IMG/VR virus record: IMGVR_UViG_3300029071_000015
DNA length: 17,566 nt
Origin: a virus
Taxonomy: Duplodnaviria > Heunggongvirae > Uroviricota > Caudoviricetes
Reading direction: 5' to 3' (one strand)
In this document: positions 988 through 17,566 of the stretch, piece after piece
How the letters are laid out: the number at the start of each line of letters is the position of its first letter
Numbering within the stretch: the first letter of the stretch is position 1
Notes under the pieces: generated by a model
What the model was told of the DNA's origin: nothing
What the model saw: only the letters and a program-made list of their open reading frames with translations
Database searches by the model: none
Position numbers and translations under genes: made by a program

Positions 988-988
988 T

Positions 989-2520: not shown

Positions 2521-2566
2521 GCCGGGATCTCAAAAAATGCATGGAACTAAAACGGGTCTATTTACA
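2521..2566. repeat. Right arm of the 46-bp inverted repeat
   Basis: gccgggatctcaaaaaatgcatggaactaaaacgggtctatttaca; its last base abuts the first codon of the sid remnant. Confidence 0.85.
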
Positions 2567-2698
2567 ACCGGACTGTCAGCGGCAACACTCCCGCACATGG
2601 ATTATGAGGTGGCAGACACACCGGCACAGCGCAAGGTGTGGCAGGACAAAATAGACCAGCAGGCAGCAGAGCTTAAGGCCAGAGGACTGCTGTCATGA
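2567..2698 (+). pseudogene. sid: 3' remnant (last ~43 codons) of a P4 sid-like capsid-size-determination gene
   Basis: Translation TGLSAATLPHMDYEVADTPAQRKVWQDKIDQQAAELKARGLLS* matches my recollection of the P4 Sid C-terminus; the stop overlaps the next start (tcATGAtg), as expected in a sid-delta-psu late operon. Confidence 0.6.
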
Positions 2699-2806
2699 TG
2701 CGCTGCCATTTCTGTCGTCATTCTGCGCATACCCGCACCGGCAAGCACAGCACCGGCTGTTGTCCGAAAAGTTAAAGGCTGTTACAGCTCACCATTCAAC
2801 CATTAA
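2695..2806 (+). pseudogene. ogr/delta-like zinc-finger late activator gene with internal deletion and frameshift
   Basis: Starts MMRCHFCRHSAHTRT (CxxC zinc-finger start like Ogr/delta) and terminates early; its 3' end in another frame encodes KVKGCYSSPFNH*, matching the C-terminus KVQGCYSSPFRH* of the intact copy at 12450..12689. About 110 bp here versus 240 bp in the intact copy. Confidence 0.55.
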
Positions 2807-2820
2807 TCAGGAGACGGGGT

Positions 2821-3393
2821 GTGACTACAATGTCATTACAGCAGGCTTTTGAGGTCTGCCAGAATAATAAAGCGGCATAGCTTCAGCGCAAAAATGAACT
2901 AGCGGCAGCCGAACAGGAATATCTGCGGCTTCTGTCCGGGGAAGGCAGGAATGTCAACCGGCTGGACGAATTACGCAATATTATCGAAGTCAGAAAATGG
3001 CTGGTGAATCAGGCCGCCGGTCGTTATATTCGTTCGCATGAAGCCGTTCAGCACATCAGCATCTGCGACCGGCTGAATGATTTTATGCAGCAGCACGGCA
3101 CAGCACTGGCGGCCGCACTGGCACCGGAGCTGATGGGCTACAGTGAGCTGACGGCCGTTGCCCGAAACTGAGCCATACAGCGTGCCACAGATGCCCTGCG
3201 TGAAGCCCTCCTGTCCTGGCTTGCGAAGGGTGAAAAAATTAATTATTCCGCACAGGATAGCGACATTTTAACGGCTATCGGATTCAGGCCTGACGAGGCT
3301 TCGGTGGATGACAGCCGTGAAAAATTCACTCCTGCGCAGAACATAATTTTTTCCCGTAAAAGTGCAGAACTGGCATCACGTCAGTCTGTGTAA
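2821..3393 (+). pseudogene. psu: psu (polarity suppression protein) pseudogene with two in-frame stop codons
   Basis: A 573-nt frame (190 codons plus stop, GTG start with RBS aggagacgggGTG) alignable along its length to the intact Psu at 12705..13271 (roughly 60% identity by eye); TAG at 2878..2880 where the intact copy has Trp, and TGA near 3170 where a sense codon is expected. Confidence 0.75.
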
Positions 3394-3423
3394 AATTCCC
3401 CGAAAATCCGCCTGTTTTTACTG

Positions 3424-3458
3424 AAAAAAGCCATGCATCGATAAGGTGCATGGCTTTG
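3424..3458 (+). terminator. Putative intrinsic terminator downstream of psu (element 2 copy)
   Basis: Hairpin gccatgca-tcgataagg-tgcatggc followed by ttt; a homologous hairpin follows the intact psu at 13311..13346. Confidence 0.35.
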
Positions 3459-3557
3459 CATGCGTTTTCCCGCCTCATTTCCTGCAGATCACGCCGCACC
3501 CGGCGCGGCCTGAGCGTGTCAGTGCAACTGCATTAAAACCGCTCCGCAAAGCGGGCG

Positions 3558-3576
3558 GGCGAGGCGGGGAAAGCAC
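3558..3576. other. cos site (19-nt P2/P4-type cohesive-end sequence)
   Basis: ggcgaggcggggaaagcac is identical to the P2/P4 cohesive-end sequence as I recall it, and sits downstream of psu as in P4. Confidence 0.6.
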
Positions 3577-3603
3577 TGCGCGCTGCAAATTAATACTAGC
3601 TTA

Positions 3604-4167
3604 TTAAGCATCCGCTTCAAATCCTCCAAGATCGATTTGCTCTTCGATTTCAGGAGTCCAAAGTAATTCTTCTGGCGTAGCGTTTGACCAAAGCAATTTA
3701 CCATTCTCGATAACATACTTAACCGGTATTTTAGGATTGTTTATGTCTTTACCATCTCTTTCATGCCATTGTCTCTCCCATTTATCATAGAAGACTTCCA
3801 AATCACCGGGCATGAGTAAATAAACTGAACGGATAGTGATATTACTATAAATTGCGAACACCCATGGAACCTGCCTATATTTCGCAATTATTGTTGGATT
3901 CATATGATGGTGAGTTGAAAAACTTTTAGTTAACTCAACATTAACTGATTTTAATTCAAACTCAGTACCAGTGACATCTACTGCATCATTACCTTCTCGC
4001 CCAGGAAGAACTTTAAGACTGAGAAGTAAAAGAACTTGCAGGAGTTTCCCTCCGTTATCTTGGAATATATCATTGATTCCGTGCTTATTAGCTAACCGTT
4101 GATATTCTTCAACCTGAGGCCAAAGCGCAATTAAATTTGACCAATCTTGATGCAACTCAAATTTCAT
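3604..4167 (-). CDS. Type II restriction endonuclease, PvuII-like (PD-(D/E)xK)
   Basis: 187-aa ORF; segments [51 protein letters not shown] and DKWER match my recollection of R.PvuII, including the catalytic D...E-x-K; ATGA overlap with the upstream C gene; divergent from the methyltransferase. Confidence 0.75.
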
Positions 4168-4400
4168 ACCTGATTATTCTCCAACAGGGAACTGGGAGAG
4201 ACGCCAAGGGCTGAAGCAATTCGGTCGATATTATCAATGGAAATATTTCTTTCACATCGCTCTACTGATCCGATGTAAGTTCTATGCAAGCCTGCTAAGT
4301 CAGCCAAGGCTTCTTGAGACAACCCTTGTCTCTCCCTTAACTTTCTGATGTTATGGGCAAAAATCACTCTTGCTCTTGAGGGGTTTATCTTTCGTTCCAT
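4164..4400 (-). CDS. Controller (C) protein of restriction-modification system, XRE-family HTH
   Basis: 78-aa ORF with a helix-turn-helix region ([41 protein letters not shown]) resembling C.PvuII-type controller proteins; sits immediately upstream of and overlaps the endonuclease gene. Confidence 0.8.
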
Positions 4401-4427
4401 TCGCGAGACAATGCAGCCTTGATGACA

Positions 4428-4452
4428 ATAGATCTACAGACTATGAGTAGCA
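4428..4452. promoter_or_regulatory. Putative C-box operator in the divergent M/C-R intergenic region
   Basis: The 55-bp intergenic region contains dyad-symmetric elements (tagatcta; actatgagt, i.e. ACT-N3-AGT) just upstream of the C gene start, where C-protein operators normally lie. Confidence 0.4.
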
Positions 4453-4455
4453 GTT

Positions 4456-5430
4456 ATGACATTTGACAATAAAAAACCTGCGTACAAAACAGATTTGGGT
4501 GCAATGTACATTGCTGACTCGCTTGAAATGCTTAAATCGATGCCAGACAACAGCTTAAATTTAGTGATGACAAGCCCACCTTTCGCATTACAGCGTAAGA
4601 AAGAATATGGTAATCACGATCAAGAACAGTACATCGATTGGTTTTTAAAATTCGGCGAGCTGATTTTTAAAAAGCTAAAAGATGATGGTAGCTTTGTCGT
4701 CGATTTTGGTGGTGCTTACATGAAAGGAGTGCCTGTTAGAAGTGTCTACAACTTCCGGGTTTTGATCAGGATGATTGATGAGGTTGGGTTCCATCTGGCT
4801 GAGGACTTCTATTGGTTTAACCCTTCAAAACTACCAAGTCCTATTGAGTGGGTTAACAAAAGAAAGCTGCGTGTTAAAGATTCTGTTAACACAATTTGGT
4901 GGTTTAGCAAAACCGAATGGCCAAAGTCAGATATAACTAAAGTTCTTGTTCCCTATAGTGATAGGATGAAAAAACTTATTGAAGACCCTAATAAATATTA
5001 TTCCCCCAAAATGCGTCCATCAGGGCATGATATAAGCAGCAGCTTTGGCAAAGATAATGGCGGTGCTATACCTCCAAATTTATTGCAAATTCCCAACTCC
5101 GAATCTAACGGTGGATATTTATCGAGTTGTAAAAAAATTGGCGTTAAGGGGCATCCAGCACGATTCCCATCTAAATTGCCGGAGTTTTTCATTACAATGT
5201 TAACAGAGCCGGGTGATCTTGTTGTAGATATTTTTGGCGGTTCAAATACAACTGGAAGTGTTGCTGAACGATTAAAACGCAAATGGCTTTCATTTGAAAT
5301 ATTACCTGAATATGTAGCCGCATCTGTATTTAGATTTACAGATAAAAATACAAGTCAAGATATACTTCAAGAGATGTATGACACTATATTAAATGGAAAT
5401 ACTCTCGATTTATGCGCCAAAGAGAAATAA
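4456..5430 (+). CDS. DNA methyltransferase, beta-class amino-MTase (likely N4-cytosine, M.PvuII-like)
   Basis: 324-aa ORF; motif IV TSPPF near the N-terminus and motif I FGGSNTTG near the C-terminus (the circularly permuted order typical of beta-class N4C/N6A MTases); divergently arranged to the C-R genes. Confidence 0.8.
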   Translation: MTFDNKKPAYKTDLGAMYIADSLEMLKSMPDNSLNLVMTSPPFALQRKKEYGNHDQEQYIDWFLKFGELIFKKLKDDGSFVVDFGGAYMKGVPVRSVYNFRVLIRMIDEVGFHLAEDFYWFNPSKLPSPIEWVNKRKLRVKDSVNTIWWFSKTEWPKSDITKVLVPYSDRMKKLIEDPNKYYSPKMRPSGHDISSSFGKDNGGAIPPNLLQIPNSESNGGYLSSCKKIGVKGHPARFPSKLPEFFITMLTEPGDLVVDIFGGSNTTGSVAERLKRKWLSFEILPEYVAASVFRFTDKNTSQDILQEMYDTILNGNTLDLCAKEK

Positions 5431-5505
5431 GGTCAAATCGTAGTTAGCTAATTCGTAAAGAAAGCCAGTCATAGAGTCAGATTGGCTTTCTATCAGCATA
5501 AATAA

Positions 5506-6764
5506 TTAAGCATGAAGTTTTGCGTAGTCAAATGGACTAATAGGTTTAATCTTGTTTGCATCAAGATAATCAGCCCACCATTGAACCATTAATCGCCTTT
5601 CATCCAAATGTTCAGGGGTATGAATATAAGCTGCCCTAACACTATTACGCTCAGAATGACTCAACTGACGTTCTATCGCGTCATCACTCCATAGCCCCGA
5701 CTCCCCCAACGCACCACGTGCCATATTCCTAAAACCATGACCACAGACTTCCGTTTTTGTGTTATATCCCATCGCACGCAATGCATTGTTTACCGTATTT
5801 TCACTCATAACCTTAGCTGCGTCATGATCTCCCGGGAAAAGAAGCTCTTTATCACCACTAATCTGCTCAAGCTGTACTAACAACATCATCGCCTGCTGGC
5901 TAAGTGGAACTATATGCTCCTCTTTCATTTTCATGCCGCGATACGAGTAACGCACACCTTTAATTTCTTCACGTTTTGCCGGAATACGCCAAATAGCGTT
6001 ATCAAAATCAAATTCTTTCCAACGAGCAAAACGCAATTCGCTTGAACGAACAAAAGTTAGTAAAGAAAGCTCAACCGCAATTTTCGTCATCATACGACCA
6101 CGATATGCAGCAAGACGCGCCAAGAACTCAGGGAAACGATGTGAGGGTAGCGCCGGATAGTGCCGCATTTTAGATGTCGATAACGCTCCAGCCATATCAC
6201 TTGCAGGATTCGAGTCTATATAATCGTTCTGTACGGCATAGCGCATAATAGTAGTGACACGTTGCTGAAGACGCTGCGCTACATCATGCTTACCACTGGC
6301 ATCAACTTTTTTATCGGAGCTAGAAGATGACTAGTTTTAAGCTGTCGGATATCAGACGAGCCAATATAAGGGAAGATATAAAGCTCTAGATAGCGAAGAA
6401 CGCGCCCCCGATGATCCTCGCTCCAACGTTTGTTGCTGGCATGCCATTCACGGGTAATAGTTTCAAAATTATAAGTACCAGCATTCTCTGCTTGGGCCTC
6501 TTTTCGTACTGCTTTTGGATCTATGCCGTGTGCCAGCAACTTTTTCGCTTCATCCCTTCTCGTTCTAGCTTCAGCAAGCGTCACGGTCGGCCAAACACCA
6601 AAAGCAAGACGATCCTCTTTTTTGTCGGAGGGGCGTCTGTATTTCATACGCCAATATTTAGAGCCTTTGATAGAAACCTCAAGATACAAACCGCCACCAT
6701 CAGCCATTTTGTAGGTTTTGTCTTTTAGCTTTGCGGTCTCGACTTGTCTGGCGTTGAGCTTCAT
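5506..6764 (-). pseudogene. int: P4-family tyrosine integrase, frameshifted (split into 6279..6764 and 5506..6246 ORFs)
   Basis: The two ORFs together align along the intact integrase at 16301..17566 (roughly 85-90% identity); the nucleotide alignment shows a 1-bp deletion near 6270..6290 (ttttttatcgg versus ttttttaatcgg in the intact copy) that breaks the frame. Confidence 0.8.
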
Positions 6765-6916
6765 TTTGGGGGCACATTTCTAATCGAAGTTAAGATGCCC
6801 CCAATGATATCCGGATTTCAACGGACAACCTCGGAAGAGGTAGGACGTAAAAATCGCTGCAAGCATTGATTTTAAAGGGATATTTGGACTTTCTCGGATG
6901 GTCTTGGAAGTACTAA

Positions 6917-6935
6917 TGGTGCGAAGGCCGGACTC
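6917..6935 (-). other. att core remnant: partial copy of a tRNA-Leu (leuX-like) 3' end
   Basis: tggtgcgaaggccggactc is the reverse complement of a tRNA-Leu 3' end (...GAGTCCGGCCTTCG(G)CACCA) with one base missing; located ~150 bp upstream of the frameshifted int, in the same orientation as a tRNA-int arrangement. Confidence 0.45.
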
Positions 6936-7080
6936 AAATTACGATATAACATACTGAAATATAATAATTTTAAATTAAAAGGAAAGTAATATGCCCCCTT
7001 TTGTGCCCCCAACGATTTTTTTGAGCATATAAAACCTAGCTAATTGATATTGCTAACAAATTAAAGATTAACTCCCTATT

Positions 7081-7111
7081 CGGTTAGGATCCGAAATCCG
7101 GATCCTAACCG
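7081..7111. repeat. Perfect 13-bp inverted repeat with 5-nt spacer
   Basis: cggttaggatccg-aaatc-cggatcctaaccg; no flanking T-run, so not a typical intrinsic terminator. Confidence 0.7.
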
Positions 7112-7129
7112 GAACTTAATCCCCACAAA

Positions 7130-7415
7130 AAAGTTTTTTTGCATTTAACTGTTCATACTGTTCACCTTGGTTATTTCTCATTTTATATCATGCAGTTAAG
7201 TGATGATGAGTTGGTGAAGGGTGAACAGTCGACTCTTCACCTTTGTTCGTTTTACTCATTCTGGGGGGGCCCCGTCAGGCGATACACGGGGGGATAAAAA
7301 GTTTTTTCCGGTTTTACTGTTCACACTGTTCACCTCTGGTTTTTTATCAATAATTTCATGGTGATACAGGGTGAACATACGGTGAAGGGTGAACAGTGGA
7401 GTGTTCACCCTGTGG
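7130..7415. promoter_or_regulatory. crr-like cis replication region: two ~120-bp direct repeats containing TGTTCACC-type iterons in both orientations
   Basis: Unit 1 (about 7130..7245) and unit 2 (about 7296..7415) each contain aaaaagttttttt, ctgttcaNactgttcacc and ggtgaagggtgaacag; TGTTCACC is the P4 alpha-protein type I iteron; located just past the 3' end of the primase gene, as crr is in P4. Confidence 0.55.
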
Positions 7416-7461
7416 CAATGTCCAGTAAGAAAATGACCGGCTATTGCCGGTCTTAGGTTGG

Positions 7462-9795
7462 TTATGCCTCTGCGGGGTCGTCGCACTTCGGCAGCCAGTC
7501 GCCGTAGCTTTCCTCTTTCAGCGACAGGTTAGTCTGTATCCCCTGCTTTGTGTGCCGCTTCTCATAATTCAGGCCGTACTCTTTCAGCATCATGGGCAGC
7601 CCCAGCCCGAACATTTTCAGGCTGAGTACGTTCCTGTACCCGTTAGCCTCCATATAGGCCAGATACGCGTGATAGAGATATTTACGGTAATTACGCGGGA
7701 TGATGCTGGCATTCCCCATAAACATCCCGTTGGTCTGCGGGAGCATTTCCAGATAGCCGCAAAAATCAAACGTCGGGTCAGCATCGCGCTTGATGCTGAG
7801 CGCCTCGTCGGAGTTCTGCTGCGACTGGAGCAGTGCGCGCGCTGCCATCGGGTCGCTGAATTTCTGCATAAGCTGGCGCACAATCACGGCCAGCTCACGC
7901 GCAATTTTATCCCTGAGCTGCGGGTCGCGTTCCTCCGGCGCAATCTGCTCCGGGAAGTGGATAATCACCCGGCGGCGCGACACACCGCCGCTGCGGTCGG
8001 TGAAGCGCATGGGGTTATTGTTCACGGCCAGAATCACCGCCGGAATATGTGTTGAGTATGGGTTCTGGTATTTCGGGTCAACTGAGACCGCATCGCCGCC
8101 GGTGATGGCCTTAAGTCCTGCGCCGTCACCGCTCCATTTTTCCTGGTCTGGCAGACGGATTAGCGAGAAGCCAATCAGGGAGGCACGCTTGCGCGGGTCT
8201 TCCAGTGTGTCGATATCGGCCGACGTGGCGTTATCTTCCCCGGCGAGCAGGGTCGCGATTTCGGCCAGAATACTTTTGCCGCTCCCGCCGGGGCCGGTGA
8301 CTTCGAGAAAGAGCTGCCAGTCGTAGCGGTTCGCCAGTACCATAAACAGCGCGGCCAGAATCACGTCGCGTTTTTGTGGATTTTTGCCGGCCGCACGGTC
8401 GAGCCAGCGCCAGAAGTTCGGCGAGTGAGTCTCCAGCGTTTCCCCGTCCACCGGTGGGGTGAAATCCACGTCGCACAGCGTGCGCAGCCAGTGTGATTTA
8501 CTGTGCGGGCTGAACAGGCCGCTCTGGGTATCGAGTACCCCGTTGCGAAAGCCAATCAGACGACGCGCCGGTGTATCCTGCTGCGGAATAATCAGTTTCA
8601 GGGTCTCCACCACCGAGGCAATTTTCCCCGATGAGAACGGGGCGCGCAGACGCTGGAATAAGTCAGCCACATTCCGTGAAAAAGTGGCGGCAGGGATATT
8701 TTTCCAGATGCCGTTTTCATAGCGGGACAGGAGCTGGCCGTTTGCATCCACCGCCAGCGCTTCGCCGTAATGCTCATGCACCCGCAAGGCCTTGTCGCTG
8801 GCGCTCATGGCGGTAAATTCCGCCTCGCTCATGGTATCAAACGGGCTTTGCGCCGGTGGCCGGATAGCGTCATAAATGGCTTTGCGTGTCGCATCCTCAC
8901 CATTCTGCATAAACGCATCATTCCAGTCACCGAACACCGGCGGCAGGGCGACAATGCCCTCACAGGCTTCTGCGGCCGCGGCGGCTTTACTCTGGCCGTC
9001 GCCGTTAAGGTCACGGTCGGCGGCGAGCACAATCTGACAGGCCGGGTGTTTTTGTCGGGCAAGGCTCGCCAGAGAAAGGAGGTTCACGGAGGACAGCGCC
9101 ACCATGACGGTTTCGCCGGTCAGGTGATGCACGGTGAGCGCGGTCGCATAACCCTCCGCTATCCACAGGCGCTTTCCCGCCTGTTTTTTCCCTTCGATGA
9201 TGTGGCACGCTCCTTTTACCGCCCCGCCTTTCAGGGTGCGTTTGAGACCGTCAGAATTAATAAGCTGAACGTTAACCAGCGCCCCGGCATCGTCATACAG
9301 TGGGACAACCATATCACCGGCGCGGAACGTCACACCGCCGGTTTTGTGTGTGGCCGTCAGCATGACACACTCATGACCGGGGAATCCCTTGCGGGTGAGG
9401 TAGGCATTGCCGCTGGCCGGTCGGGTTTTCTCCATGAGCCTGACGGCCAGCGCGGCCGCCGCCTGGCGGTCAACCTCCGTTTCTGCTTCTGCGGCCGCAA
9501 TCACTTCCGGGGCAACCGGCGGCAGGTTGCCGGTCACGGCGTTCACCTTTTGAGCTGCCTCTGACGGATTTACACCGAACACCTTTTCAACCAGCTTAAG
9601 CCCGTCACCTGCGCCACACTGATTGCAAAACCACGTCCCGCGCCCTTCTTTATCATCAAAGCGGAAACGGTCAGAGCCGCCACACACCGGGCAGGACTGA
9701 TGGCGGTTTTTAATCACCTTCACACCCAGCGCAGGGAGAATGTGCGGCCAGTGGCCGCAGGCCTGTTTTACCGTTTCTGTTACGTTCATTTTCAT
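7462..9795 (-). CDS. P4 alpha-like primase-helicase (zinc-binding primase, P-loop NTPase)
   Basis: Long ORF; start chosen at MKMNVTETV with RBS gagggagaaaacaaccATG; N-terminal zinc-finger CPVCGGSDRF...FCNQCG; Walker A GPGGSGKS; size comparable to P4 alpha. Confidence 0.9.
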   Translation of the reverse strand: MKMNVTETVKQACGHWPHILPALGVKVIKNRHQSCPVCGGSDRFRFDDKEGRGTWFCNQCGAGDGLKLVEKVFGVNPSEAAQKVNAVTGNLPPVAPEVIAAAEAETEVDRQAAAALAVRLMEKTRPASGNAYLTRKGFPGHECVMLTATHKTGGVTFRAGDMVVPLYDDAGALVNVQLINSDGLKRTLKGGAVKGACHIIEGKKQAGKRLWIAEGYATALTVHHLTGETVMVALSSVNLLSLASLARQKHPACQIVLAADRDLNGDGQSKAAAAAEACEGIVALPPVFGDWNDAFMQNGEDATRKAIYDAIRPPAQSPFDTMSEAEFTAMSASDKALRVHEHYGEALAVDANGQLLSRYENGIWKNIPAATFSRNVADLFQRLRAPFSSGKIASVVETLKLIIPQQDTPARRLIGFRNGVLDTQSGLFSPHSKSHWLRTLCDVDFTPPVDGETLETHSPNFWRWLDRAAGKNPQKRDVILAALFMVLANRYDWQLFLEVTGPGGSGKSILAEIATLLAGEDNATSADIDTLEDPRKRASLIGFSLIRLPDQEKWSGDGAGLKAITGGDAVSVDPKYQNPYSTHIPAVILAVNNNPMRFTDRSGGVSRRRVIIHFPEQIAPEERDPQLRDKIARELAVIVRQLMQKFSDPMAARALLQSQQNSDEALSIKRDADPTFDFCGYLEMLPQTNGMFMGNASIIPRNYRKYLYHAYLAYMEANGYRNVLSLKMFGLGLPMMLKEYGLNYEKRHTKQGIQTNLSLKEESYGDWLPKCDDPAEA

Positions 9796-9809
9796 GGTTG
9801 TTTTCTCCC

Positions 9810-10130
9810 TCAGTGCAGTACCGGCGCGGTGATATGACGGGCGCAAAGCTCATCCATCACGGCCAGCCCGAGAAAGGACAGCGACGGCGCGGCTTTGAGT
9901 GGTCCGGCTTCCATTAAATCCTCCAGTAGTGCACAGGCAATCTGGCGGCCTTTTTCCTCGCCGTGCTGGCGCAGGTAGAAGCCCTCCAGTTCGGCGGCAA
10001 TAGTGCTTTCCAGCGCGTCGAGGGTGAGGTGTGGATGGCGGTGCTGACGTTCGCACAGGGTCAGCCATGCACAGGCCACGGCGCGACGATACAGCGCGGC
10101 GCGTAATACGGGCGGTAATGGCTTTTTCAT
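9810..10130 (-). CDS. Hypothetical protein, P4-family early-operon gene upstream of primase
   Basis: 106-aa ORF ending 14 nt upstream of the primase start; ATGA overlap with the preceding gene suggests an operon. Confidence 0.5.
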
Positions 10131-10354
10131 ACGTTACCCTCCCCGGTCAGCCAGTGCTGATTGCAGCGTTCTACCACGCCGTCGAGCTGGGCAGTCATGA
10201 GATAAATCACGGAGGTGAGCTGTAACTGCTGCGCCGGGTCACGCCTAACGGTCGCGCAGTCCTGCACCTGCATCAGGTCGCCGACGAGCTGGCCGACATT
10301 GCGCATATGCTCCAGACATTCGAGGTCACGGGCGGTAATGGTGGTGTGTCTCAT
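10127..10354 (-). CDS. Hypothetical small protein (early operon)
   Basis: About 75-aa ORF; start placed at the second ATG, which overlaps the stop of the upstream small ORF (gcATGAgacac). Confidence 0.45.
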
Positions 10355-10545
10355 GCGCACACCTCCGCAACCGGCAGACGGCCAGCGAACGAGAGAAAGT
10401 AATCGCGAACGAGAGAAAGGCGAGCGGCGTGCTCATCACCGGCAACGGTGCGAAGCATACAGATACGGGGTTTACGGTCTGCGCGACGAACGGCGGCAAA
10501 CACAAAGACAAACTGCGGGTGTGACGGGGTGAGGGTCGTAGCCAT
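10351..10545 (-). CDS. Hypothetical small protein (64 aa)
   Basis: Short version of the 183-aa ORF, starting at MATTLTPSH with GGAG about 9 nt upstream; the longer form would overlap the AlpA-like gene and an apparently non-coding region. Confidence 0.3.
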
Positions 10546-10747
10546 AGCGGCAATCTCCAATAAGTAGCGGTTATCGCCACCACAAGAGCTGCAAATCTCA
10601 TGGGTGGTAGCCCGGACAGGGTTTGCAGTACCGGCCTTATTGGAAACCGGCCAGCCCGAAGGCTGCCCCGCCCGGACCACCATTATCTGACAGGAGCCAC
10701 GGTGTAAGCACCACAGCCCGAAAAATAGGTGTGTCTGAGCAACGACA

Positions 10748-10770
10748 TAAAAAAACACGCTCGGCGCGTG
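10748..10770 (-). terminator. Putative intrinsic terminator (minus strand) downstream of the AlpA-like gene
   Basis: 6-bp stem acacgc/gcgtgt with 5-nt loop, followed on the minus strand by a run of 7-8 U. Confidence 0.35.
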
Positions 10771-10898
10771 TTGTGTCGCCAATAAGTTACACGGGCTGCA
10801 AATCCCGGCTGCCGATTTTGCGACAGCGGGAAAACTATACCTGGAAACGGCGAAAAGAAGCAAGCCAGAAAAAGGGGCTGTTTGCTGAACGGTCATCA

Positions 10899-11165
10899 TC
10901 ACGCGTCATAGCCCTGGTTACGTTCGGCAATGCGATCCGCCATCCATGCAGTGATTTCAGACTGCGCCCACGCCACATTTTTTCCGCCGAGGGAGATTTG
11001 TTTCGGGAAGGCTTCCCGGCTGATAAGGTCGTAAATGGTCGAACGGGACAGGCCGCACAGATGCATCACTTCGGGCAGACGGATAAAGCGCTCGTGAACG
11101 GTATCAGAAACCGGCATCAGCGGCGCGGCAGGGGCAGAAGACGGGGAAGAAAAAGCGGTGTGCAT
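10899..11165 (-). CDS. AlpA/Vis-family phage transcriptional regulator (excisionase-like HTH)
   Basis: 88-aa ORF containing [42 protein letters not shown], typical of AlpA-family proteins; RBS gaggtagcccgATG; the true start may be the internal Met (MPVSD). Confidence 0.75.
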
Positions 11166-11294
11166 CGGGCTACCTCATAAAGTCCATACAGTGCCGGTCG
11201 TGTCCGTCCGGCTTCGGGTAACTCCTTATTATGTCTATATTTTTCCTCAGGTCATGTGAGATTTTCGGGGAAACAAACATTGACTTTTCCCTAT

Positions 11295-11331
11295 GGCAAA
11301 CAAAGGCAAACGCTGGCAAACATATGCAAAT
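11295..11331. promoter_or_regulatory. Four 7-bp direct repeats (GGCAAAC x3, TGCAAAT) at exact 10-bp spacing: putative operator array
   Basis: Repeats start at 11295, 11305, 11315 and 11325; one helical turn apart; in the divergent regulatory region between the AlpA-like and sid-like genes. Confidence 0.4.
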
Positions 11332-11339
11332 CACTGCAT

Positions 11340-11540
11340 TACAATGCAGCAATTTCTATTTCTTTTAGTTATATATTTTTTATTTTTAATCGAAATAAAA
11401 TCTAGATGCTATAGCCAGGGCAAAACAGGAGGGTGAACAGTGGTGAACAGTCGGTGAACAGTCAGACCCTCAACTGTTCACCATTTAACTTACTGTATTA
11501 CTTATCTTTTTATTTAAGGTGAACAGTGGTGAATAGTTAT
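11340..11540. promoter_or_regulatory. ori-like region: AT-rich stretch plus cluster of GGTGAACA/TGTTCACC iterons
   Basis: AT-rich 11340..11410; iterons gggtgaacagtggtgaacagtcggtgaacagt...ctgttcacc (11432..11483) and ggtgaacagtggtgaatagt (11517..11538); same octamer as in the crr-like region. Confidence 0.5.
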
Positions 11541-11612
11541 AAGTAAAAAAACAAACGGTGAGTTAGATTTTCCTGCGACCTTTCTCTGGCCAGCCTGATT
11601 TTAAGGTCTGTT

Positions 11613-11630
11613 TGTGCCAGCACTCTGACA
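11613..11630 (+). promoter_or_regulatory. TGT-N12-ACA element, candidate Ogr/Delta-activated late promoter site (Psid-like)
   Basis: tgtgccagcactctgaca lies ~75-90 bp upstream of the sid-like start; P2/P4 late promoters carry a TGT-N12-ACA activator site around -55. Confidence 0.3.
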
Positions 11631-11702
11631 ACGGTAATGAATCGTGTTGTTGTGCAGGAGGCGTCAGAATCATTTCAGGTTGAACACACGGAGAGCCTGA
11701 AC

Positions 11703-12446
11703 ATGAAACCCGAACTCATTATCAAAGCCATGCAGACCGTTATCAGTAAACAGGATGAAGGCGCGGAACAACGCATTGCCGGTGCGCTGGCCGCACTTAA
11801 CGAAGCAAAAGACGCATACATGGCCAGCATGGAAAAACTCAGCGACATTGAGGCTTCCATTCAGCGTTGTGAGCAGGAACGACAGACTGCCCTCAGTGAA
11901 AGCGCACAGGCCGAACAGGACTGGCGCAGCCGCTTTCGAACCCTGCGTGGCAACCTCACTCCTGAACTGAAAGCTGAACACAGTAAGCGTATCGCCAGCC
12001 GCGAACTGGCTGATGAGTTCACCGGTCTGATTACCGAGCTCGAGAAAGACAAAAGCCTCGCCATGCTTGGCGCATGCTCCTCCGGTACGGCTTATATCCG
12101 CGCCCATGAAAAAGCATTCACCACTTACGCCAACAGCGAGTGGAAGAAGGCGCAGGCCGGAATCAGCCCCGCACTGTTACGTGCCTTCCTGTTGCGTATA
12201 CGGTCGCTGGAAATGAGTGGGGAAACCTCGCCGCGCGCGACCGTGAATCGCGAGCTGGGTGATGCACTTAATATGCAGTCAGCCCTGTATCATTTTAATA
12301 TTACACAGGAGCCGGTTCTGTCCGTAACGGGCATGAATCGTCCGGTAATTACCGGGGTTGATATGGAACTGTTCAAAAGCCCCGCCAAACGGATGAAGCT
12401 TGCCGCTGAACTGGCAGCCAAAAACCCTGAACAGGCGGAGGGCTGA
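11703..12446 (+). CDS. Sid-like protein (putative capsid-size-determination / external scaffold), divergent
   Basis: About 247 aa from the internal Met with RBS ggagagcctgaacATG; coiled-coil-like, Ala/Glu/Gln-rich; sits immediately upstream of delta and psu as sid does in P4; C-terminal segment (EPVLSVTGMNRPVITGVDMELF) shows weak resemblance to the P4 Sid C-terminus seen at 2567..2698. Confidence 0.55.
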   Translation: MKPELIIKAMQTVISKQDEGAEQRIAGALAALNEAKDAYMASMEKLSDIEASIQRCEQERQTALSESAQAEQDWRSRFRTLRGNLTPELKAEHSKRIASRELADEFTGLITELEKDKSLAMLGACSSGTAYIRAHEKAFTTYANSEWKKAQAGISPALLRAFLLRIRSLEMSGETSPRATVNRELGDALNMQSALYHFNITQEPVLSVTGMNRPVITGVDMELFKSPAKRMKLAAELAAKNPEQAEG

Positions 12447-12449
12447 ATT

Positions 12450-12689
12450 ATGTTTCACTGCCCGTTCTGCAAAAAGACCTCGCATGTCCGAACCAGCCGG
12501 TATCTGTCGGAAAACGTCAAACAGCGTTATCACCAGTGTACCAATATCGAATGCTCGGCCACTTTCCGCACCATCGAGTCTGTTGACGGTGTGATACGTG
12601 CCGCACCGGAGAAAACCGACCCCGCCCCGGTGACGCCAGCGCCGCCGCGTAAAGTACAGGGCTGCTACAGCTCGCCGTTCCGGCATTAA
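12450..12689 (+). CDS. Ogr/Delta-family zinc-finger late transcription activator
   Basis: 79-aa ORF MFHCPFCKKTSHVRTSRY...YHQCTNIECSATF with the CxxC...CxxC arrangement of P2 Ogr / P4 delta; starts 3 nt after the sid-like stop. Confidence 0.85.
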   Translation: MFHCPFCKKTSHVRTSRYLSENVKQRYHQCTNIECSATFRTIESVDGVIRAAPEKTDPAPVTPAPPRKVQGCYSSPFRH

Positions 12690-12704
12690 TCAGGAGAGAG
12701 ACAC

Positions 12705-13271
12705 GTGACCACTGTGACATTGCAGCAGGCCTTTGAGGCCTGTCAGACGAACAAAAACACCTGGCTGAAACGTAAAGCCGAACTGGCCGACCTTGAACTT
12801 GAATACCGTGAACAGCTCCTTGCCGGTGACGAACAAATCCCGCGCAAAATGCAGGATTTGCGCGACAATATCGACGTGAAAAAATGGGAGATTAATCAGA
12901 CTGCCGGTCGCTATATCCGCTCACATGAGGAGGTGCAGCACATCAGCATTCGCAACCGGCTCAATGACTTTATGCAGCAGCACGGCGCGGAGCTGGCCGC
13001 CACGCTGGCACCTGAGCTGATGGGATATCACGAACAGCTTCCCGCAGTAAAACAGAGCGCCATGCAGCACTCGGTTGATTATCTGCGTGAAGCCCTGTCG
13101 GTGTGGCTGGCCGCCGGTGAAAAAATTAATTATTCCGTGCAGGACAGCGATATTTTAACGGCCATCGGATTCAGGCCTGATGCGGCTTCGCGGGATGATA
13201 GTCGCGAAAAATTCACCCCGGCACAGAACCTGATTTACACCCGCCGACGTGCAGAACTGGCCACACGGTAG
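12705..13271 (+). CDS. psu: Psu-like polarity suppression protein
   Basis: 188-aa ORF (GTG start with RBS caggagagagacacGTG) with conserved blocks AGRYIRSHE.VQHISI, RLNDFMQQHG, LAPELMGY, GEKINYS.QDSDILTAIGFRPD and DSREKFTPAQN matching my recollection of P4 Psu and the pseudogene copy at 2821..3393. Confidence 0.85.
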   Translation: MTTVTLQQAFEACQTNKNTWLKRKAELADLELEYREQLLAGDEQIPRKMQDLRDNIDVKKWEINQTAGRYIRSHEEVQHISIRNRLNDFMQQHGAELAATLAPELMGYHEQLPAVKQSAMQHSVDYLREALSVWLAAGEKINYSVQDSDILTAIGFRPDAASRDDSREKFTPAQNLIYTRRRAELATR

Positions 13272-13310
13272 CACGCGAAAAAATCCCCGAAAATTCCGCT
13301 ATTTTTCCTG

Positions 13311-13346
13311 AAAAAAGCCATGCATCCATAAGGTGCATGGTTTTGC
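13311..13346 (+). terminator. Putative intrinsic terminator after psu
   Basis: Hairpin gccatgca-tccataagg-tgcatgg followed by tttt. Confidence 0.4.
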
Positions 13347-13444
13347 ATGCAAATCCCCGTATTTTTTATCCCACGCAACACCAGTGCCGGTGCGGCCTGA
13401 GGCCGTTCATGCACCTGCATTAAAAGCGACCTCTTAAGCGGGCA

Positions 13445-13463
13445 GGCGTGGCGGGGAGAGCAT
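13445..13463. other. Variant cos-like site (16/19 match to the P2/P4 cohesive-end sequence)
   Basis: ggcgtggcggggagagcat versus canonical ggcgaggcggggaaagcac (present intact at 3558..3576); same position relative to psu and the upstream hairpin. Confidence 0.45.
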
Positions 13464-13588
13464 TGCGCGCTAAGCCGTGAGGATAATTATTATCCTACTC
13501 ATGACCTGTCTAATCGGAAAGAAGTGAAAATATTCATGTAACCCCTGAATATTTAACGTTAAACCGATCAAATTCTAGGGCGAAAATA

Positions 13589-13618
13589 TTGCCTGAGCTA
13601 AGTCAATGGGAGTATGCT
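13589..13618 (+). promoter_or_regulatory. Candidate sigma70 promoter for the cargo cassette
   Basis: TTGCCT-N18-TATGCT about 50 bp upstream of the cassette start codon at 13669; weak match, by eye only. Confidence 0.25.
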
Positions 13619-13668
13619 TAATTTTTGATCATGGTGCATATCCAAAGATAAGAAGCTAAGGAAAGAGC

Positions 13669-14748
13669 ATGAATGTAGGGCATCTCAATTTTTTCAAGGT
13701 TAATAAGTGCGGTTTATACAAGGTAAATGATGACAATACCTATGGTTTAGAACTAAGCGAAACATTTGACCTCATACAGGATTGGGTAGGAACTAAACCT
13801 CTTGCACTCACCATACCATGGGACCCAAAAGAAAAACCCAATAGATCAAAGTGTTATTGTAAAGACATCTACAAAGATGAAAATACTGGTGATTTTTTAA
13901 TCATGTTATGGAAATCTGATACTGATAGTACTGGTTCTTTATTAGGAGCGAGTGAAGACGGTGAAATCGGAAGTTCATCAGTGGTTAAATATACTAATAG
14001 CTACAGAGGGAAAAAAGTCATCTGGGGTCGCCCATGCTTTTATTGGGTTATACCTGAACTTGAAACTATAGTTTCTATTAAATTCGATCATTCTGTTTGT
14101 GACTCTGAACTATTTCAAGATTATGTACACTCATCTATTACTAATAGAGTTAAACATAGCAAAAGAGTTAAAAATAAAACCGAGAAAGGTTATATAAGAT
14201 TATCTAATACTGATGACGAAGATTTATATAAATACATGTACAGATTTGATATGAAGCTCCGAAGCTTAGAAACCACTCATGCTGAGTTAGGTAAATTGAT
14301 ATCAAAAATAACACATATTGTTCGCAGAGAAACCATTATTATAAATCCAAATGACGCACGAGCTGATTGGTTAAAGACTTTTAGCACTCTCGTTCCATTT
14401 GTGTCCGGAAAGAAAAACACCAGAACAAGACAGATTGAAATAAAAGCAGAAGCGAAGCCATCCTTGAAAGAAGTTCAAGAAATAATTGAAAAACATTCTG
14501 CTGAGGATAGAGAAAAACGTCTTTGGGATAATGTGGGATTTGCGACGGACAAGGGCATAACATGGGTGGATAAATATAGAATGCGTGATATTCTCAATGT
14601 CCCTTCCGAAGACTATTCGACATATACCGCTGCATATATCTACGAACACATATCACACAAAAGAAAAGAATTCATTTCCCCTATATTAAAAGAGCTAAAA
14701 GCATTAAAATCTCAATCAAGAATAAAGAAAGCATCTGGAGAGGATTGA
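13669..14748 (+). CDS. Hypothetical protein (cargo gene A, 359 aa, soluble, Lys-rich)
   Basis: Long ORF with RBS aaggaaagagcATG; AT-rich codon usage contrasting with the satellite backbone; no catalytic motif I can recognise; stop directly abuts the next start (TGAATG). Confidence 0.7.
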   Translation: MNVGHLNFFKVNKCGLYKVNDDNTYGLELSETFDLIQDWVGTKPLALTIPWDPKEKPNRSKCYCKDIYKDENTGDFLIMLWKSDTDSTGSLLGASEDGEIGSSSVVKYTNSYRGKKVIWGRPCFYWVIPELETIVSIKFDHSVCDSELFQDYVHSSITNRVKHSKRVKNKTEKGYIRLSNTDDEDLYKYMYRFDMKLRSLETTHAELGKLISKITHIVRRETIIINPNDARADWLKTFSTLVPFVSGKKNTRTRQIEIKAEAKPSLKEVQEIIEKHSAEDREKRLWDNVGFATDKGITWVDKYRMRDILNVPSEDYSTYTAAYIYEHISHKRKEFISPILKELKALKSQSRIKKASGED

Positions 14749-15285
14749 ATGTTAAAAGCTATAGTAGGCCTCGTCAAATACACATGGATATACATAGCAA
14801 TATTCATTATATCGCTATTGGTCATTTTACCATCCGATATTTACTATGTGTATAACGATTTTGCTAACTATTGCACTCTTCTCGTATCAGTTTCTGGAAT
14901 GGTTTTTACTATTATGGGGATTTGGTTAGCGTTTCTTTATCCAAATGCTTTGCAGCGTATTGTTAACCCCAAAACTATAGAAACTGTTGATTTCACCGAA
15001 CAACTGGAAGATACAAAAAGGTTAGAAGCAATAGTTGGAAGTGTTCTAAAATCATCTTTCGTTATGATTACTTTACTTGTTGTATATTTAGTTAAACTAG
15101 TATTTTTCAAGAGTCATCTTTATTTAGAGAGTCAAGAAGTAATAAAAGACATATCTTTAGCATTAATTATTGCCATTTCATACATGCAGATTGAGGCAGT
15201 GATTAGTGTAATACTAGCTAATGTTATGTTTATCAATGATTTACATAATAAGCGAGAGCAAAGAGACATCGACGATCAAGTATGA
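14749..15285 (+). CDS. Hypothetical integral membrane protein (cargo gene B, 178 aa, ~4 TM helices)
   Basis: Four hydrophobic segments (WIYIAIFIISLLVIL, LLVSVSGMVFTIMGIWLAFLY, FVMITLLVVYLVKLVFF, LALIIAISYMQIEAVISVILANVMFI); translationally coupled to gene A. Confidence 0.7.
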   Translation: MLKAIVGLVKYTWIYIAIFIISLLVILPSDIYYVYNDFANYCTLLVSVSGMVFTIMGIWLAFLYPNALQRIVNPKTIETVDFTEQLEDTKRLEAIVGSVLKSSFVMITLLVVYLVKLVFFKSHLYLESQEVIKDISLALIIAISYMQIEAVISVILANVMFINDLHNKREQRDIDDQV

Positions 15286-15292
15286 GGAAAAA

Positions 15293-16246
15293 ATGAAAAA
15301 AAACATACGAGTTATACCTAAAAACATTCATAACAAGTTAAAAAGGCTTGGCAATGCAGTTGTTGCTGGCACTTCCATCGCATTTACAGAAGACCAATTA
15401 AAAAATGGTATACTAGAGCACCTTGGAATATACTTTGATAATGGTGTTAATGCTTATGAGACGTCGGTTATACCCGATCCATTGCAAGGCAAATATTCAT
15501 TCAAAAATGTTTTCGGTGAAGAAATCGTAAGAAAAGACCTTCCAAAAGAAACTCATTACACTGAAATTGAGTCACCTAACTGGGGTGATAGTTCTAACGG
15601 TACGCATACTGTTAGATTACCTCACGAGAAATACCCCAGAGATATTATCCCACCAAGACTCATAGCAATTGAAATTAATCACAAACAGTCTTCGGACAGT
15701 CATTTCATATTTAATTTCAGAGTAACTAGAATTTTAGAAAAAAAATCAACCAAGTTTCATGATGAATTATTATTCGACTTAAATCTTCTTCAAGAAAATA
15801 TTGGGAAGTGTGGGATTGAGAATGCTGATAAACCTATATCGACTTATGCTGACACACTCATAGTATCATGGGACATATTTCCACCAGGTAGTAAAGAGGA
15901 AGTTTTAGCAAGAATCTTTAGAGGGAAAAATATCACTACAGATAAGAAAAGTGTTGCTGAAAACAGATATGACTTCTTTATGAGCCTTGATCCTAAAAAA
16001 ATTGTCACAGGTAATAGTACGTTCAGTAATTATATTGGAGCTATGCTAGAGGACGACCTGGTTGTTTTTGAAAATATAGAATATGGTAATGCAATATATA
16101 TCCTCTATGATAACTGGGATGAAATCAGCAAGCTATCTCGAATCGATTTGTTATCAGGAAGAGCAGGCAATAATTTCGATAGAATAATTCATAGTGGTAA
16201 TTGGAAAGACGAGGTGCGAAAAAAAGTTACTAATGGAAGATTATGA
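15293..16246 (+). CDS. Hypothetical protein (cargo gene C, 317 aa, soluble)
   Basis: Start placed at MKKNIRV with RBS tatgaggaaaaaATG, 7 nt after the gene B stop; the longer listed ORF (from 15221) would overlap gene B; followed by a strong terminator. Confidence 0.65.
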   Translation: MKKNIRVIPKNIHNKLKRLGNAVVAGTSIAFTEDQLKNGILEHLGIYFDNGVNAYETSVIPDPLQGKYSFKNVFGEEIVRKDLPKETHYTEIESPNWGDSSNGTHTVRLPHEKYPRDIIPPRLIAIEINHKQSSDSHFIFNFRVTRILEKKSTKFHDELLFDLNLLQENIGKCGIENADKPISTYADTLIVSWDIFPPGSKEEVLARIFRGKNITTDKKSVAENRYDFFMSLDPKKIVTGNSTFSNYIGAMLEDDLVVFENIEYGNAIYILYDNWDEISKLSRIDLLSGRAGNNFDRIIHSGNWKDEVRKKVTNGRL

Positions 16247-16263
16247 TTAAAGTGTTTAACACA

Positions 16264-16300
16264 AAATAAACGCCTATTTAAATTATAGGCGTTTATTTTG
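16264..16300. terminator. Bidirectional intrinsic terminator between cargo gene C and int
   Basis: Hairpin aaacgcctat-ttaaatt-ataggcgttt flanked by an A-run upstream and a T-run downstream; lies between convergent genes. Confidence 0.5.
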
Positions 16301-17566
16301 CTATTGTTTTTTGTTTATTTTAGCAAAATCATAAGGTGTAACTGTTTTGCTTTCATTTGCTTTGAGGTAATCAGCCCACCATTGCACCATCAAGCGACGC
16401 TCATCCAAATGCTCAGAGGTATGAATATACGCAGCACGTACATTATTTCTTTCCGAATGGCTCAACTGCCGTTCAATCGCGTCATCACTCCATAATCCTG
16501 ACTCACCCATAGCACCACGTGCCATCGTTCTGAATCCATGCCCGCAAACTTCAGTTTTCGTGTCATAGCCCATCGCACGCAGGGCGCTATTTACCGTGTT
16601 TTCACTCATAACCTTAGTTGCGTCATGATCCCCAGGAAACAGCAGCTCTTTATCACCACTAATTTGCTTGAGCTGCTCTAATAAAACCATCGCCTGCCGA
16701 CTGAGAGGAACGATATGCTCCTCTTTCATCTTCATGCCACGGTATGAGTAACGCACGCCTTTAATTTCTTCTCGCTTTGCCGGTATGCGCCAAAGAGATT
16801 TATCGAAGTCGAATTCATCCCAACGCGCGAAACGTAACTCACTGGAACGCACAAAAGTTAGTAAGGAAAGCTCGACAGCGATCCGTGTCATTACACGGCC
16901 ACGATAAGCAGCAAGCCGAGCAAGAAACTCAGGGAACCGGCTTGAGGGTAAAGCGGGGTAATGTCGCGCTTTGGTTGTCGATAGCGCACCGGCCATATCA
17001 CTGGCTGGATTTGATTCGATGTAATCGTTCTGTACGGCATAACGCATGATCGCCGTGACGCGCTGTTGCAAGCGCTGAGCGACGTCATGCTTTCCACTGG
17101 CATCAACTTTTTTAATCGGGGCTAACAGGTGGCTGGTTTTGAGCTGGCGAATGTCGGACGAACCGATATGAGGAAAAATATAAAGCTCAAGATATCGAAG
17201 AACGCGCGATCGATGGTCTTCACTCCATCGCTTGTTACAGGCATGCCATTCACGAGCAATGTTTTCGAAAGTATATGCCCCTGAATTCTCGGCTTGAGCT
17301 TCTTTCTGTTCGGCTTTTGGGTCAATGCCCTGCACTAACAGCTTTTTAGCTTCATCGCGCTTTGCTCTTGCCTGAGCAAGAGTCACTGTAGGCCAAACAC
17401 CAAAAGCAAGGCGATCCTCTTTTTTGTCTGAGGGGCGTCTGTATTTCATGCGCCAGTATTTAGAACCCTTGGCCGACACTTCAAGATACAACCCCCCGCC
17501 ATCGGCCATTTTGTAGGTTTTGTCTTTCGGCTTTGCGGTCTCGACCTGTCTGGCGTTGAGCTTCAT
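16301..17566 (-). CDS. int: P4-family tyrosine integrase (site-specific recombinase), intact
   Basis: 421-aa ORF; catalytic HxxR (HGFRTMARG) and C-terminal Tyr region (VRAAYIHTSEH); start codon is the last three bases of the window, so the promoter, att site and presumed tRNA lie beyond the window. Confidence 0.9.
   Translation of the reverse strand: MKLNARQVETAKPKDKTYKMADGGGLYLEVSAKGSKYWRMKYRRPSDKKEDRLAFGVWPTVTLAQARAKRDEAKKLLVQGIDPKAEQKEAQAENSGAYTFENIAREWHACNKRWSEDHRSRVLRYLELYIFPHIGSSDIRQLKTSHLLAPIKKVDASGKHDVAQRLQQRVTAIMRYAVQNDYIESNPASDMAGALSTTKARHYPALPSSRFPEFLARLAAYRGRVMTRIAVELSLLTFVRSSELRFARWDEFDFDKSLWRIPAKREEIKGVRYSYRGMKMKEEHIVPLSRQAMVLLEQLKQISGDKELLFPGDHDATKVMSENTVNSALRAMGYDTKTEVCGHGFRTMARGAMGESGLWSDDAIERQLSHSERNNVRAAYIHTSEHLDERRLMVQWWADYLKANESKTVTPYDFAKINKKQ

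Follow-up and report, generated by a model that had tools for sequence, protein, structure and literature searches.

Two P4-Type Modules beside leuX

The stretch of DNA analyzed here, referred to as the window (17,566 nucleotides; IMG/VR virus record IMGVR_UViG_3300029071_000015), carries two modules of the P4 satellite type in the same orientation: a truncated distal copy, hereafter the stump (2558-6935), and a complete proximal copy (6936-17566). We consider it very likely that these are two unrelated P4-family satellites that integrated in sequence at the 3' end of the tRNA gene leuX in a lineage of Escherichia marmotae. A preliminary description of the same DNA had proposed two copies of the order int, cargo, cos, psu, delta, sid, in one orientation, and matches to P4 at both the protein and the DNA level bear this out for each copy.

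The window is assigned to E. marmotae (cryptic clade V) because one of the related sequences (designated here by L numbers), contig L017, is CP099351.1, given as an E. marmotae chromosome in a 2025 paper, and because positions 1-6935 are 99.4-99.6% identical to L010-L013, L016, and L017, without gaps except at a core base, versus ~92.6% for typical E. coli over the housekeeping flank. No complete E. coli genome covers at least 80% of the window; such genomes give only partial matches, at 84-91%.

The stump contains the following features, among them a PvuII-type restriction-modification (R-M) cargo; lengths are in base pairs (bp), kilobases (kb), or amino acids (aa), and open reading frames are abbreviated ORFs.

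2558-2698 (+): sid', the last 46 codons only; tblastn match to P4 Sid residues 199-244 at 91% identity; left truncation point
2694-2803 (+): delta' (Ogr/Delta, internally deleted); ~15 N-terminal codons to an early stop, then ~12 C-terminal codons in another frame
2827-3393 (+): psu' pseudogene; 92% aa identity to P4 Psu across stops at codons 18 and 115
3558-3576 (+): distal cos; 0 mismatches to GGCGAGGCGGGGAAAGCAC, the exact P4 cohesive-end sequence
3604-4167 (-): PvuII-type restriction endonuclease (R), 187 aa, intact; Pfam Endonuc-PvuII 6.5e-62, PDB R.PvuII 1eyu/1pvi 7.7e-74
4164-4400 (-): C (controller) protein with a helix-turn-helix (HTH); PADLOC Control_protein 2.5e-39, Pfam HTH_3; overlaps the start of R
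4456-5430 (+): PvuII-type N4-cytosine DNA methyltransferase (M), 324 aa, intact; PDB M.PvuII 1boo 7.5e-173, Pfam N6_N4_Mtase; divergent from C-R
5506-6764 (-): int', a P4-type integrase pseudogene; ORFs of 161 aa and 246 aa split by a 1-bp deletion at ~6313
6765-6916 (-): int-side (P') attachment (att) arm, from alignment with P4 attP and the proximal attL
6917-6935 (-): 19-bp att core, GAGTCCGGCCTTCG-CACCA in the tRNA sense; attR of the proximal satellite and former leuX 3' end beside the distal element

With inactivating lesions in its core genes (int', delta', psu', and sid'), the segment 2558-6935 is a defective P4-like satellite. No primase and no regulatory region were found in the distal copy, and its decay agrees with the preliminary description, which had listed a frameshift in int, two stops in psu, an internal deletion in delta, a truncated sid, and the absence of the primase and the regulatory region. 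The tail of delta', KVKGCYSSPFNH and a stop, matches the C-terminus of the proximal Delta, KVQGCYSSPFRH and a stop. The lesion in int' is common to all related loci, in gapless alignments, and the cos site is contiguous with a stretch 93.6% identical in DNA to the right end of P4. The psu' stops are distributed more unevenly: that at codon 18 occurs in the window only, that at codon 115 is common to most relatives, a further private stop is found in L016, and L111 has none; psu' is still accumulating stop codons across copies of the stump. At the tRNA-side end of the stump, the int-side arm lacks one of two tandem 12-bp arm repeats, and the core at 6917-6935 is the only att site of this copy, the outer end having been deleted. 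The left boundary is a deletion bordering on pieces of two genes, one for an autotransporter and one for a phosphorothioate-dependent HNH endonuclease.

The proximal copy, apart from its cargo, comprises:

6936-7126: primase-side (P) attachment arm; arm repeats at ~6990-7011 match the P4 arm repeats annotated at 4151-4174
7127-7409: crr-like iteron region; 6 TGTTCACC repeats, clustered at 7159-7409, 74-76% identical to the P4 crr repeats
7465-9795 (-): alpha primase-helicase, 777 aa; 84.6% aa identity to P4 alpha over the full length; Zn_Ribbon_Prim, Toprim, D5_N, Pox_D5
9813-10130 (-): DUF5375 (P4 orf106 homologue); family and P4 matches
10127-10360 (-): 77-aa ORF in the position of P4 epsilon/orf151; phrog_10110 only
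10351-10902 (-): Ash-family ORF; Pfam Phage_ASH, phrog_6928; overlies the immunity region
10600-10687 (-): CI immunity RNA (Rfam C4 family); RF01695, 85.9 bits versus a gathering score of 45
10750-10827 (-): isrK-like RNA of the P4 immunity/leader region; RF01394, 72 bits versus a gathering score of 50
10899-11165 (-): AlpA/Vis-type excisionase-regulator, 88 aa; Pfam Phage_AlpA 3e-20, 69% aa identity to P4 orf88
11431-11525: ori iterons; 5 TGTTCACC repeats, 77.9% identical to P4 9309-9533
11637-12446 (+): Sid-like capsid-size protein, 247-269 aa by start choice; 30.8% aa identity to P4 Sid, phrog_6165 1.8e-76
12450-12689 (+): Delta, 79 aa, a single Ogr/Delta zinc finger, short phiR73-type; Pfam Ogr_Delta 3e-20
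12705-13271 (+): Psu, 188 aa; Pfam Psu 3e-88, 64% aa identity to P4 Psu
13445-13463 (+): proximal cos, GGCGTGGCGGGGAGAGCAT; ends the psu-cos homology block with P4
16301-17566 (-): int, 421 aa, intact; 95.6% aa identity to P4 Int, three integrase domains; its ATG lies at the last base of the window

This copy has what a P4-like satellite is recognized by: a tRNA-adjacent integrase, alpha together with ori and crr, a psu/delta/sid block, and AlpA together with the CI RNA. The TGTTCACC iterons give 11 matches in two clusters, crr and ori, versus 0.49 expected. From these genes, we infer that the proximal satellite is probably mobile.

The leuX tRNA and the Junction between the Copies

The window itself ends on the start codon of int, and the tRNA is seen only in contigs identical to it. 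An exact-protein look-up of the proximal integrase retrieved these contigs, which belong to several independent samples. Starting at 6301 or 6776, L004, L006, and L007 match the window at 100% identity. In L004 and L006, tRNA-Leu(CAA), i.e., leuX, ends 164 bp upstream of the proximal int ATG, so the tRNA gene that the preliminary description had expected just past the window end is indeed there. Beyond leuX, the identical contigs continue into a truncated ahr and then yjgR. In E. coli K-12 and other E. coli, the order is ahr-leuX-(island)-nanS-nanM-nanC, and this common frame supports the earlier suggestion, made from nanS, that the window belongs to the leuX locus. It had also been said that K-12 holds a different cryptic element there; the K-12 interval is occupied by the 40-kb cryptic element KpLE2, with an intB pseudogene.

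Between the two copies, the sequence 6917-6935 reads GAGTCCGGCCTTCGCACCA in the tRNA sense, which is the 20-bp core of P4 attP and leuX minus one G. The earlier reading of this sequence as resembling a tRNA 3' end proved correct: it matches the 3' end of tRNA-Leu(CAA) at 19 of 20 positions, with one G missing. The 20-bp core lies inside leuX at L004 9818-9837 and, together with the 19-bp core at 6917-6935, forms a direct repeat of the tRNA end at the element boundaries. The int-side arm of the distal copy lies to the left of the core and the primase-side arm of the proximal copy to its right. The junction, therefore, has the topology of an attP, and P4 2668-7304 aligns colinearly with window 5518-10130.

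Order of Arrival

The sequence of events can be read from related loci in which the same site is differently occupied. The stump alone adjoins an intact leuX in L010-L013, L016, L017, L106-L108, L110, L111, L113, and L114, and the alignment of L010-L013, L016, and L017 with the window breaks off precisely at 6935, where the tRNA core ends. At this very point, L014/L109 carry a canonical-type P4 with epsilon, a 166-aa Delta, and different cargo, and L015 carries another complete satellite with an Eco57I-like cargo. Three different complete satellites are thus found at one point, counting that of the window, and the occupied state was the rarer one, present in one of 24 and three of 24 contigs in the two samples read. 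All stump copies share the identical frameshift, deletion, and truncation in gapless alignment; because these lesions are the same in all copies, including those without a satellite, the stump is older than the diversification of the lineage. Complete satellites reached the stump-bearing site later, at least three times. This is direct before-and-after evidence for sequential integration, and the stump-only and alternatively occupied loci confirm what the preliminary description had deduced, namely sequential integrations at one tRNA site with the older element decaying.

The two copies are also distinct in origin. Their DNA is 80.8% identical in int (1211 bp) and 72.2% identical over the delta 3' end, psu, and cos (836 bp); from psu to cos, identity to P4 is 93.6% for the distal and 72.9% for the proximal copy, and the two cargos are unrelated. 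A single satellite that integrated as a dimer, or was duplicated in tandem before one copy decayed, would leave the attP-like succession of primase-side arm, core, and int-side arm described above, and the colinearity with P4 is likewise what a head-to-tail dimer predicts. However, this origin is excluded, with a residual probability that is close to nil, because the copies differ in DNA (by 19-28% in shared genes), in the type of Delta, in cos, and in cargo, and the stump occurs by itself beside leuX in most related genomes. The reverse order of events, in which the complete satellite came first and the R-M element later entered its attR and then decayed, could in principle have used the secondary core at the junction as a target. 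It is very unlikely, since the stump, with identical lesions and no proximal satellite, adjoins an intact leuX in most contigs, three different satellites occupy the proximal position, and the proximal copy is free of pseudogenes and shows 100% identity between several samples.

Similarly, int and psu each occur twice, which might confuse an assembler, but an assembly chimera is hardly conceivable: the same junction occurs, at 100% identity, in independent ENA and Logan samples (L004, L006, and L007) and at 99.84% in the JGI contig L005, and repeats of 72-81% identity are too divergent to collapse. The same negligible weight falls on a single composite element moving as a 15-kb unit, given that its two parts are found separately in the population and that such an element has no left-hand att core.

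Several observations count against the reading of two sequential integrations by a now defective and a complete satellite. A second att core at the outer end of the stump was not found within three mismatches anywhere in the window; because the left end has no attR, the original extent of the stump and its own integration event are reconstructed rather than seen. A scan of GTDB species representatives with the methylase gave no Escherichia match, only PvuII-type methylases in many phyla; the stump is therefore lineage-wide, not species-wide. In the proximal copy, epsilon is the only P4 core gene not found: tblastn gave no match to it, and the 77-aa ORF in its position has no match to the Pfam family 'Derepression'. 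By the published scheme, this makes the proximal copy a variant missing one core gene. The preliminary description had called this copy intact in int, psu, delta, the sid-like, AlpA-like, and primase genes, and both iteron regions, all of which holds; the term must be qualified by the lack of a detectable epsilon. The proximal cos lies in the expected place but matches P2/P4 cos at 16 of 19 positions, with three mismatches, and we take GGCGTGGCGGGGAGAGCAT to resemble the phage 186 type rather than the P2/P4 type. Finally, excision, replication, and packaging of this copy with a P2-like helper are predictions.

What the sequences show directly is how the array is built, where the tRNA lies, in which order the elements arrived, and that the R-M genes are intact; sequential integration would connect these observations as follows. 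A close relative of canonical P4 would have integrated first, with the PvuII-type C, R, and M genes in its psu-int cargo hotspot. A deletion running from the middle of sid outward would then have taken the primase, the regulatory region, and the element's own attR, leaving it stranded, and the remnant would have acquired the int frameshift, the internal deletion in delta, and the psu stop codons. Because integration of the P4 type rebuilds the tRNA 3' end, leuX would have stayed a usable attB. A second, divergent satellite, with a short Delta, a 186-like cos, and PDC-M18 plus one more gene as cargo, would have recombined its attP with the leuX core and settled between leuX and the stump, its attR being the 6917-6935 core fused to the old int-side arm of the stump, hence the attP-like junction. 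The R-M cargo would have survived both by protecting the cell and by killing cells that lose it after segregation.

Next to the core, the int-side arm of the stump exists in two haplotypes, with seven linked differences in ~95 bp (6808-6901), against ~0.5% divergence in the surrounding DNA. In the haplotype shared by the window, L012, L016, and L108, the part nearest the core does not differ from P4. The pattern has the look of a recombination patch beside the core, perhaps the scar of an earlier satellite visit.

The PvuII-Type R-M Cargo of the Stump

The R-M genes have the layout of a PvuII-type type II system, with a PvuII-fold endonuclease, an N4-cytosine methyltransferase, and an HTH C protein, C and R overlapping at 4164-4167. 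The exact methyltransferase protein is indexed in 332 blocks of a public collection. A first sample of loci was retrieved by the exact M protein and a second, of nine contexts, by the int' fragment. In these nine contexts, whose retrieval did not depend on the R-M genes, R, C, and M are free of internal stops and differ by at most one aa. The 1.77 kb of R-M DNA shows no disrupting change in ~18 sequences; over the same span of time, the satellite genes have undergone a frameshift, a deletion, and a truncation, and gained at least three independent stops in 564 bp of psu'. The R-M genes are intact in every copy examined, as the preliminary description had supposed when it stated that the older element kept this cargo while decaying. 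On sequence grounds, the system is probably active, and we infer that it was kept through its defence value, post-segregational killing, or both.

Two results from the first sample weaken the case for selection. All eight variable sites in the R-M genes are synonymous, but this is weak evidence for purifying selection because six of the eight lie in M, itself the exact query. The density of single-nucleotide polymorphisms is 4.5/kb in the R-M genes, no lower than the 5.6/kb of int'. R-M systems are known addiction modules. It is conceivable, though less likely than not, that sequential integration is right but that the R-M genes are intact through too little elapsed time or through addiction, and not through usefulness in defence. 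Stump copies diverge by only ~0.5% overall, so few mutations are expected anywhere, and the similar polymorphism density in int' fits this view. It is at odds with the difference already described between the undisturbed R-M genes and the repeatedly damaged satellite genes, and with the finding of a 2026 survey that the same pattern is general in defective P4s (PMC13586616).

Searches for a packaged or free form with this cargo were negative: IMG/VR gives only methylase relatives of 80-82% identity, with no P4 genes nearby, and an exact 33-mer of the junction has no match.

Two side observations concern this cargo. L112 (GCA_000208565.2) keeps int', M, C, and R, and unrelated genes, including one for a 1760-aa Big-domain protein, take the place of all DNA left of R; the R-M genes have outlasted what is a rearrangement, or possibly an error of scaffolding. 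The 17.6-kb window contains no CAGCTG, presumably the target of the PvuII-type system, versus ~4.1 occurrences expected under a first-order Markov model. Avoidance of this site was considered and set aside as too weak to interpret, since P4 itself has one CAGCTG versus ~3 expected.

The Cargo of the Proximal Satellite and the Chromosomal Flank

The cargo of the proximal satellite lies between cos and int and consists of three genes:

13669-14748 (+): cargo gene 1, PDC-M18A (candidate defence protein); PADLOC PDLC04494 1.5e-38
14749-15285 (+): cargo gene 2, PDC-M18B, 178 aa; PADLOC PDLC04500 9.6e-16
15293-16246 (+): cargo gene 3, 317 aa; no family or fold assigned

PDC-M18, which is system 4 of Rousset et al., recurs as a two-gene cargo in the P4 hotspot (PMC11754643), and the adjoining PDC-M18A and PDC-M18B genes reproduce the layout of this candidate defence system. 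The hydrophobic sequence of PDC-M18B suggests a membrane location. The three-gene block recurs at ~90% identity in seven complete E. coli genomes, where all three genes are annotated as hypothetical proteins; in E. coli MB50, it sits within a P4-like satellite at leuX. Gene 3 has 559 homologues, the distant ones (~50% identical) lying in defence-island-like neighbourhoods without PDC-M18. The recurrence of gene 3 near defence-island-like genes may be worth more than the array itself.

On the side of the stump facing away from leuX, the window contains:

1-987 (+): nanS (sialate O-acetylesterase); Pfam SASA in identical loci, annotated nanS in syntenic E. coli; flank at the far side of the island from leuX
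971-1301 (+): phosphorothioate-dependent HNH restriction endonuclease gene, 3' fragment; HNH_2 and PADLOC HNH matches, 97.9% identical to the 3' part in many E. coli

The HNH fragment is the last ~330 bp of a gene that is intact beside nanS in E. coli and is a leftover of an older defence island. Window 1344-2462 corresponds, at 91.9% identity, to E. coli MS 16-3 DNA whose annotation lists a hypothetical protein and an autotransporter beta-barrel-domain protein; an intact 197-aa ORF inside this block (1763-2356) has no family match. Fragments of older islands fill ~970-2460, between nanS and the distal satellite.

Asymmetry of the att Cores

The preliminary description had called the 19-bp core a remnant, implying decay. 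It is instead the normal form of attR: in eight of eight complete P4-like elements with both ends visible (L003, L154, L124, L125, L129, L133, L144, and L145), attL has 20 bp, inside the tRNA, and attR has 19 bp. P4-like elements of E. coli strains MB50 and B19 have this 19-bp attR, and IMG/VR contains it in 37 contigs (L115-L151) from various hosts. A primase-side 'TTT' followed by a 20-bp core was seen once in IMG/VR, and a 20-bp core is present in the L015 junction and in the P4 reference attP. This distribution suggests that most P4-like attPs have a 19-bp core and that strand exchange may take place 3' of the missing G, within the last 5-6 nucleotides of leuX, GCACCA. The tRNA would then retain its own sequence almost to its end. 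This consistent 20-bp attL/19-bp attR asymmetry, which would place strand exchange in the last few bases of leuX, may likewise outweigh the array in interest.

Past the window end, at L004 9327-9557, only a 76-aa ADH_N fragment of ahr is left; the gene is full-length in E. coli. The valS-holC-pepA-lptFG-yjgR flank (L004 1-9700) is 99.6-99.7% identical to six complete E. coli genomes and 90-95% identical to more than 5,400 others. The six E. coli with this E. marmotae-like flank include APEC O1:K1:H7 strains, UPEC132, GN02350, and ZJ3920, which suggests that the leuX-adjacent flank may have passed between species.

Two cos Sites and a Possible Hybrid Genome

The array contains two co-oriented cos sites, at 3558 and 13445, 9,887 bp apart. 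Reading from one to the other, the order is cos, R-M cargo, int', attP-like junction, crr, alpha, immunity, ori, sid, delta, psu, cos, which is exactly the gene order of the P4 virion genome. For lambda, packaging can start directly from tandem prophages in the chromosome, with no need for excision. By analogy, the terminase of a P2-type helper might cut and package a cos-to-cos hybrid straight from the chromosome, although we regard this as a long shot: P2 terminase prefers circular monomers, and 3 of the 19 cos positions are not the same in the two sites. If it did occur, the newer satellite, with its genes for replication and hijacking, would re-mobilize the stranded PvuII-type cargo, offering a concrete route for the rapid cargo swapping seen at P4 hotspots.

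Comparison with Known Systems

In the phage database, the core has no counterpart other than P4 itself. P4 (NC_001609/X51522) and the proximal copy share the order int, cargo, cos, psu, delta, sid, ori, alpA/vis, CI RNA, orf106, alpha, crr, att, as well as the integrase family (95.6% aa identity), the leuX att core, and the TGTTCACC iterons. They differ in Delta (166 aa in P4 versus 79 aa with a single finger), in Sid (only 31% identical), in epsilon and orf151 (no detectable counterpart in the proximal copy), in cos (three mismatches), in cargo (gop-beta-cII in P4 versus PDC-M18 and one gene), and in the length of the core (20 bp in P4 attP versus 19 bp in the proximal attR). The distal copy is nearer to P4, with a Psu of 92% aa identity and an exact cos, but it is a stump.

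The R-M cargo compares most closely with the PvuII system of Proteus (R.PvuII 1PVI, M.PvuII 1BOO, and C.PvuII), in which, as here, C overlaps R and M is divergent. A homologue from Proteus hauseri is 78% identical to the methyltransferase of the stump, and the solved chain of R.PvuII has 157 aa versus the 187 aa of the stump R. The original PvuII system is plasmid-borne. Here, the context is chromosomal and satellite-derived, and the specificity is putative, by homology to PvuII.

Layered islands at tRNA genes are known elsewhere, for example at leuX in K-12 (KpLE2) and in E. coli B19; in such islands, as here, the newest element is on the tRNA side and older remnants are farther outward. In K-12, a P4-type int pseudogene is found at leuX. 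B19, which shows the same pattern as the window, has a frameshifted int remnant, McrBC, and the phosphorothioate-dependent HNH endonuclease gene beside a complete P4-like satellite at leuX. Both differ from the window in content; in the window, both layers are recognizably P4 satellites.

Tandem P4 arrays, pseudogenization, and defective P4s with working defence genes have already been published. Satellite-finding software handles tandem satellites explicitly (PMC10085698). Defective P4 islands, in which the mobility genes are pseudogenes and the defence genes are intact, have been surveyed (NAR 2026, PMC13586616); the stump fits this description, with int', psu', delta', and sid' broken and C, R, and M intact, and differs in that its cargo is a PvuII-type R-M system and in that it forms the right-hand flank of an active-looking satellite. 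The array is thus a well-resolved new instance that leaves current understanding unchanged (PMC8628076, PMC13586616). It serves as a worked example of how a tRNA-linked defence island is built, in which a satellite brings defence genes, loses its mobility genes, and retains its cargo, and the same tRNA site keeps accepting new satellites with new cargo. Moura de Sousa and Rocha noted tandem P4-like elements and probable pseudogenization in 2021 (PMC8628076); their tandems have the same architecture but come from E. coli, not E. marmotae. Compared with these, the order of events is resolved here within one lineage: among E. marmotae, the site survives in its empty state, with a single occupant, and with alternative occupants, and that order is read directly from these states rather than inferred.

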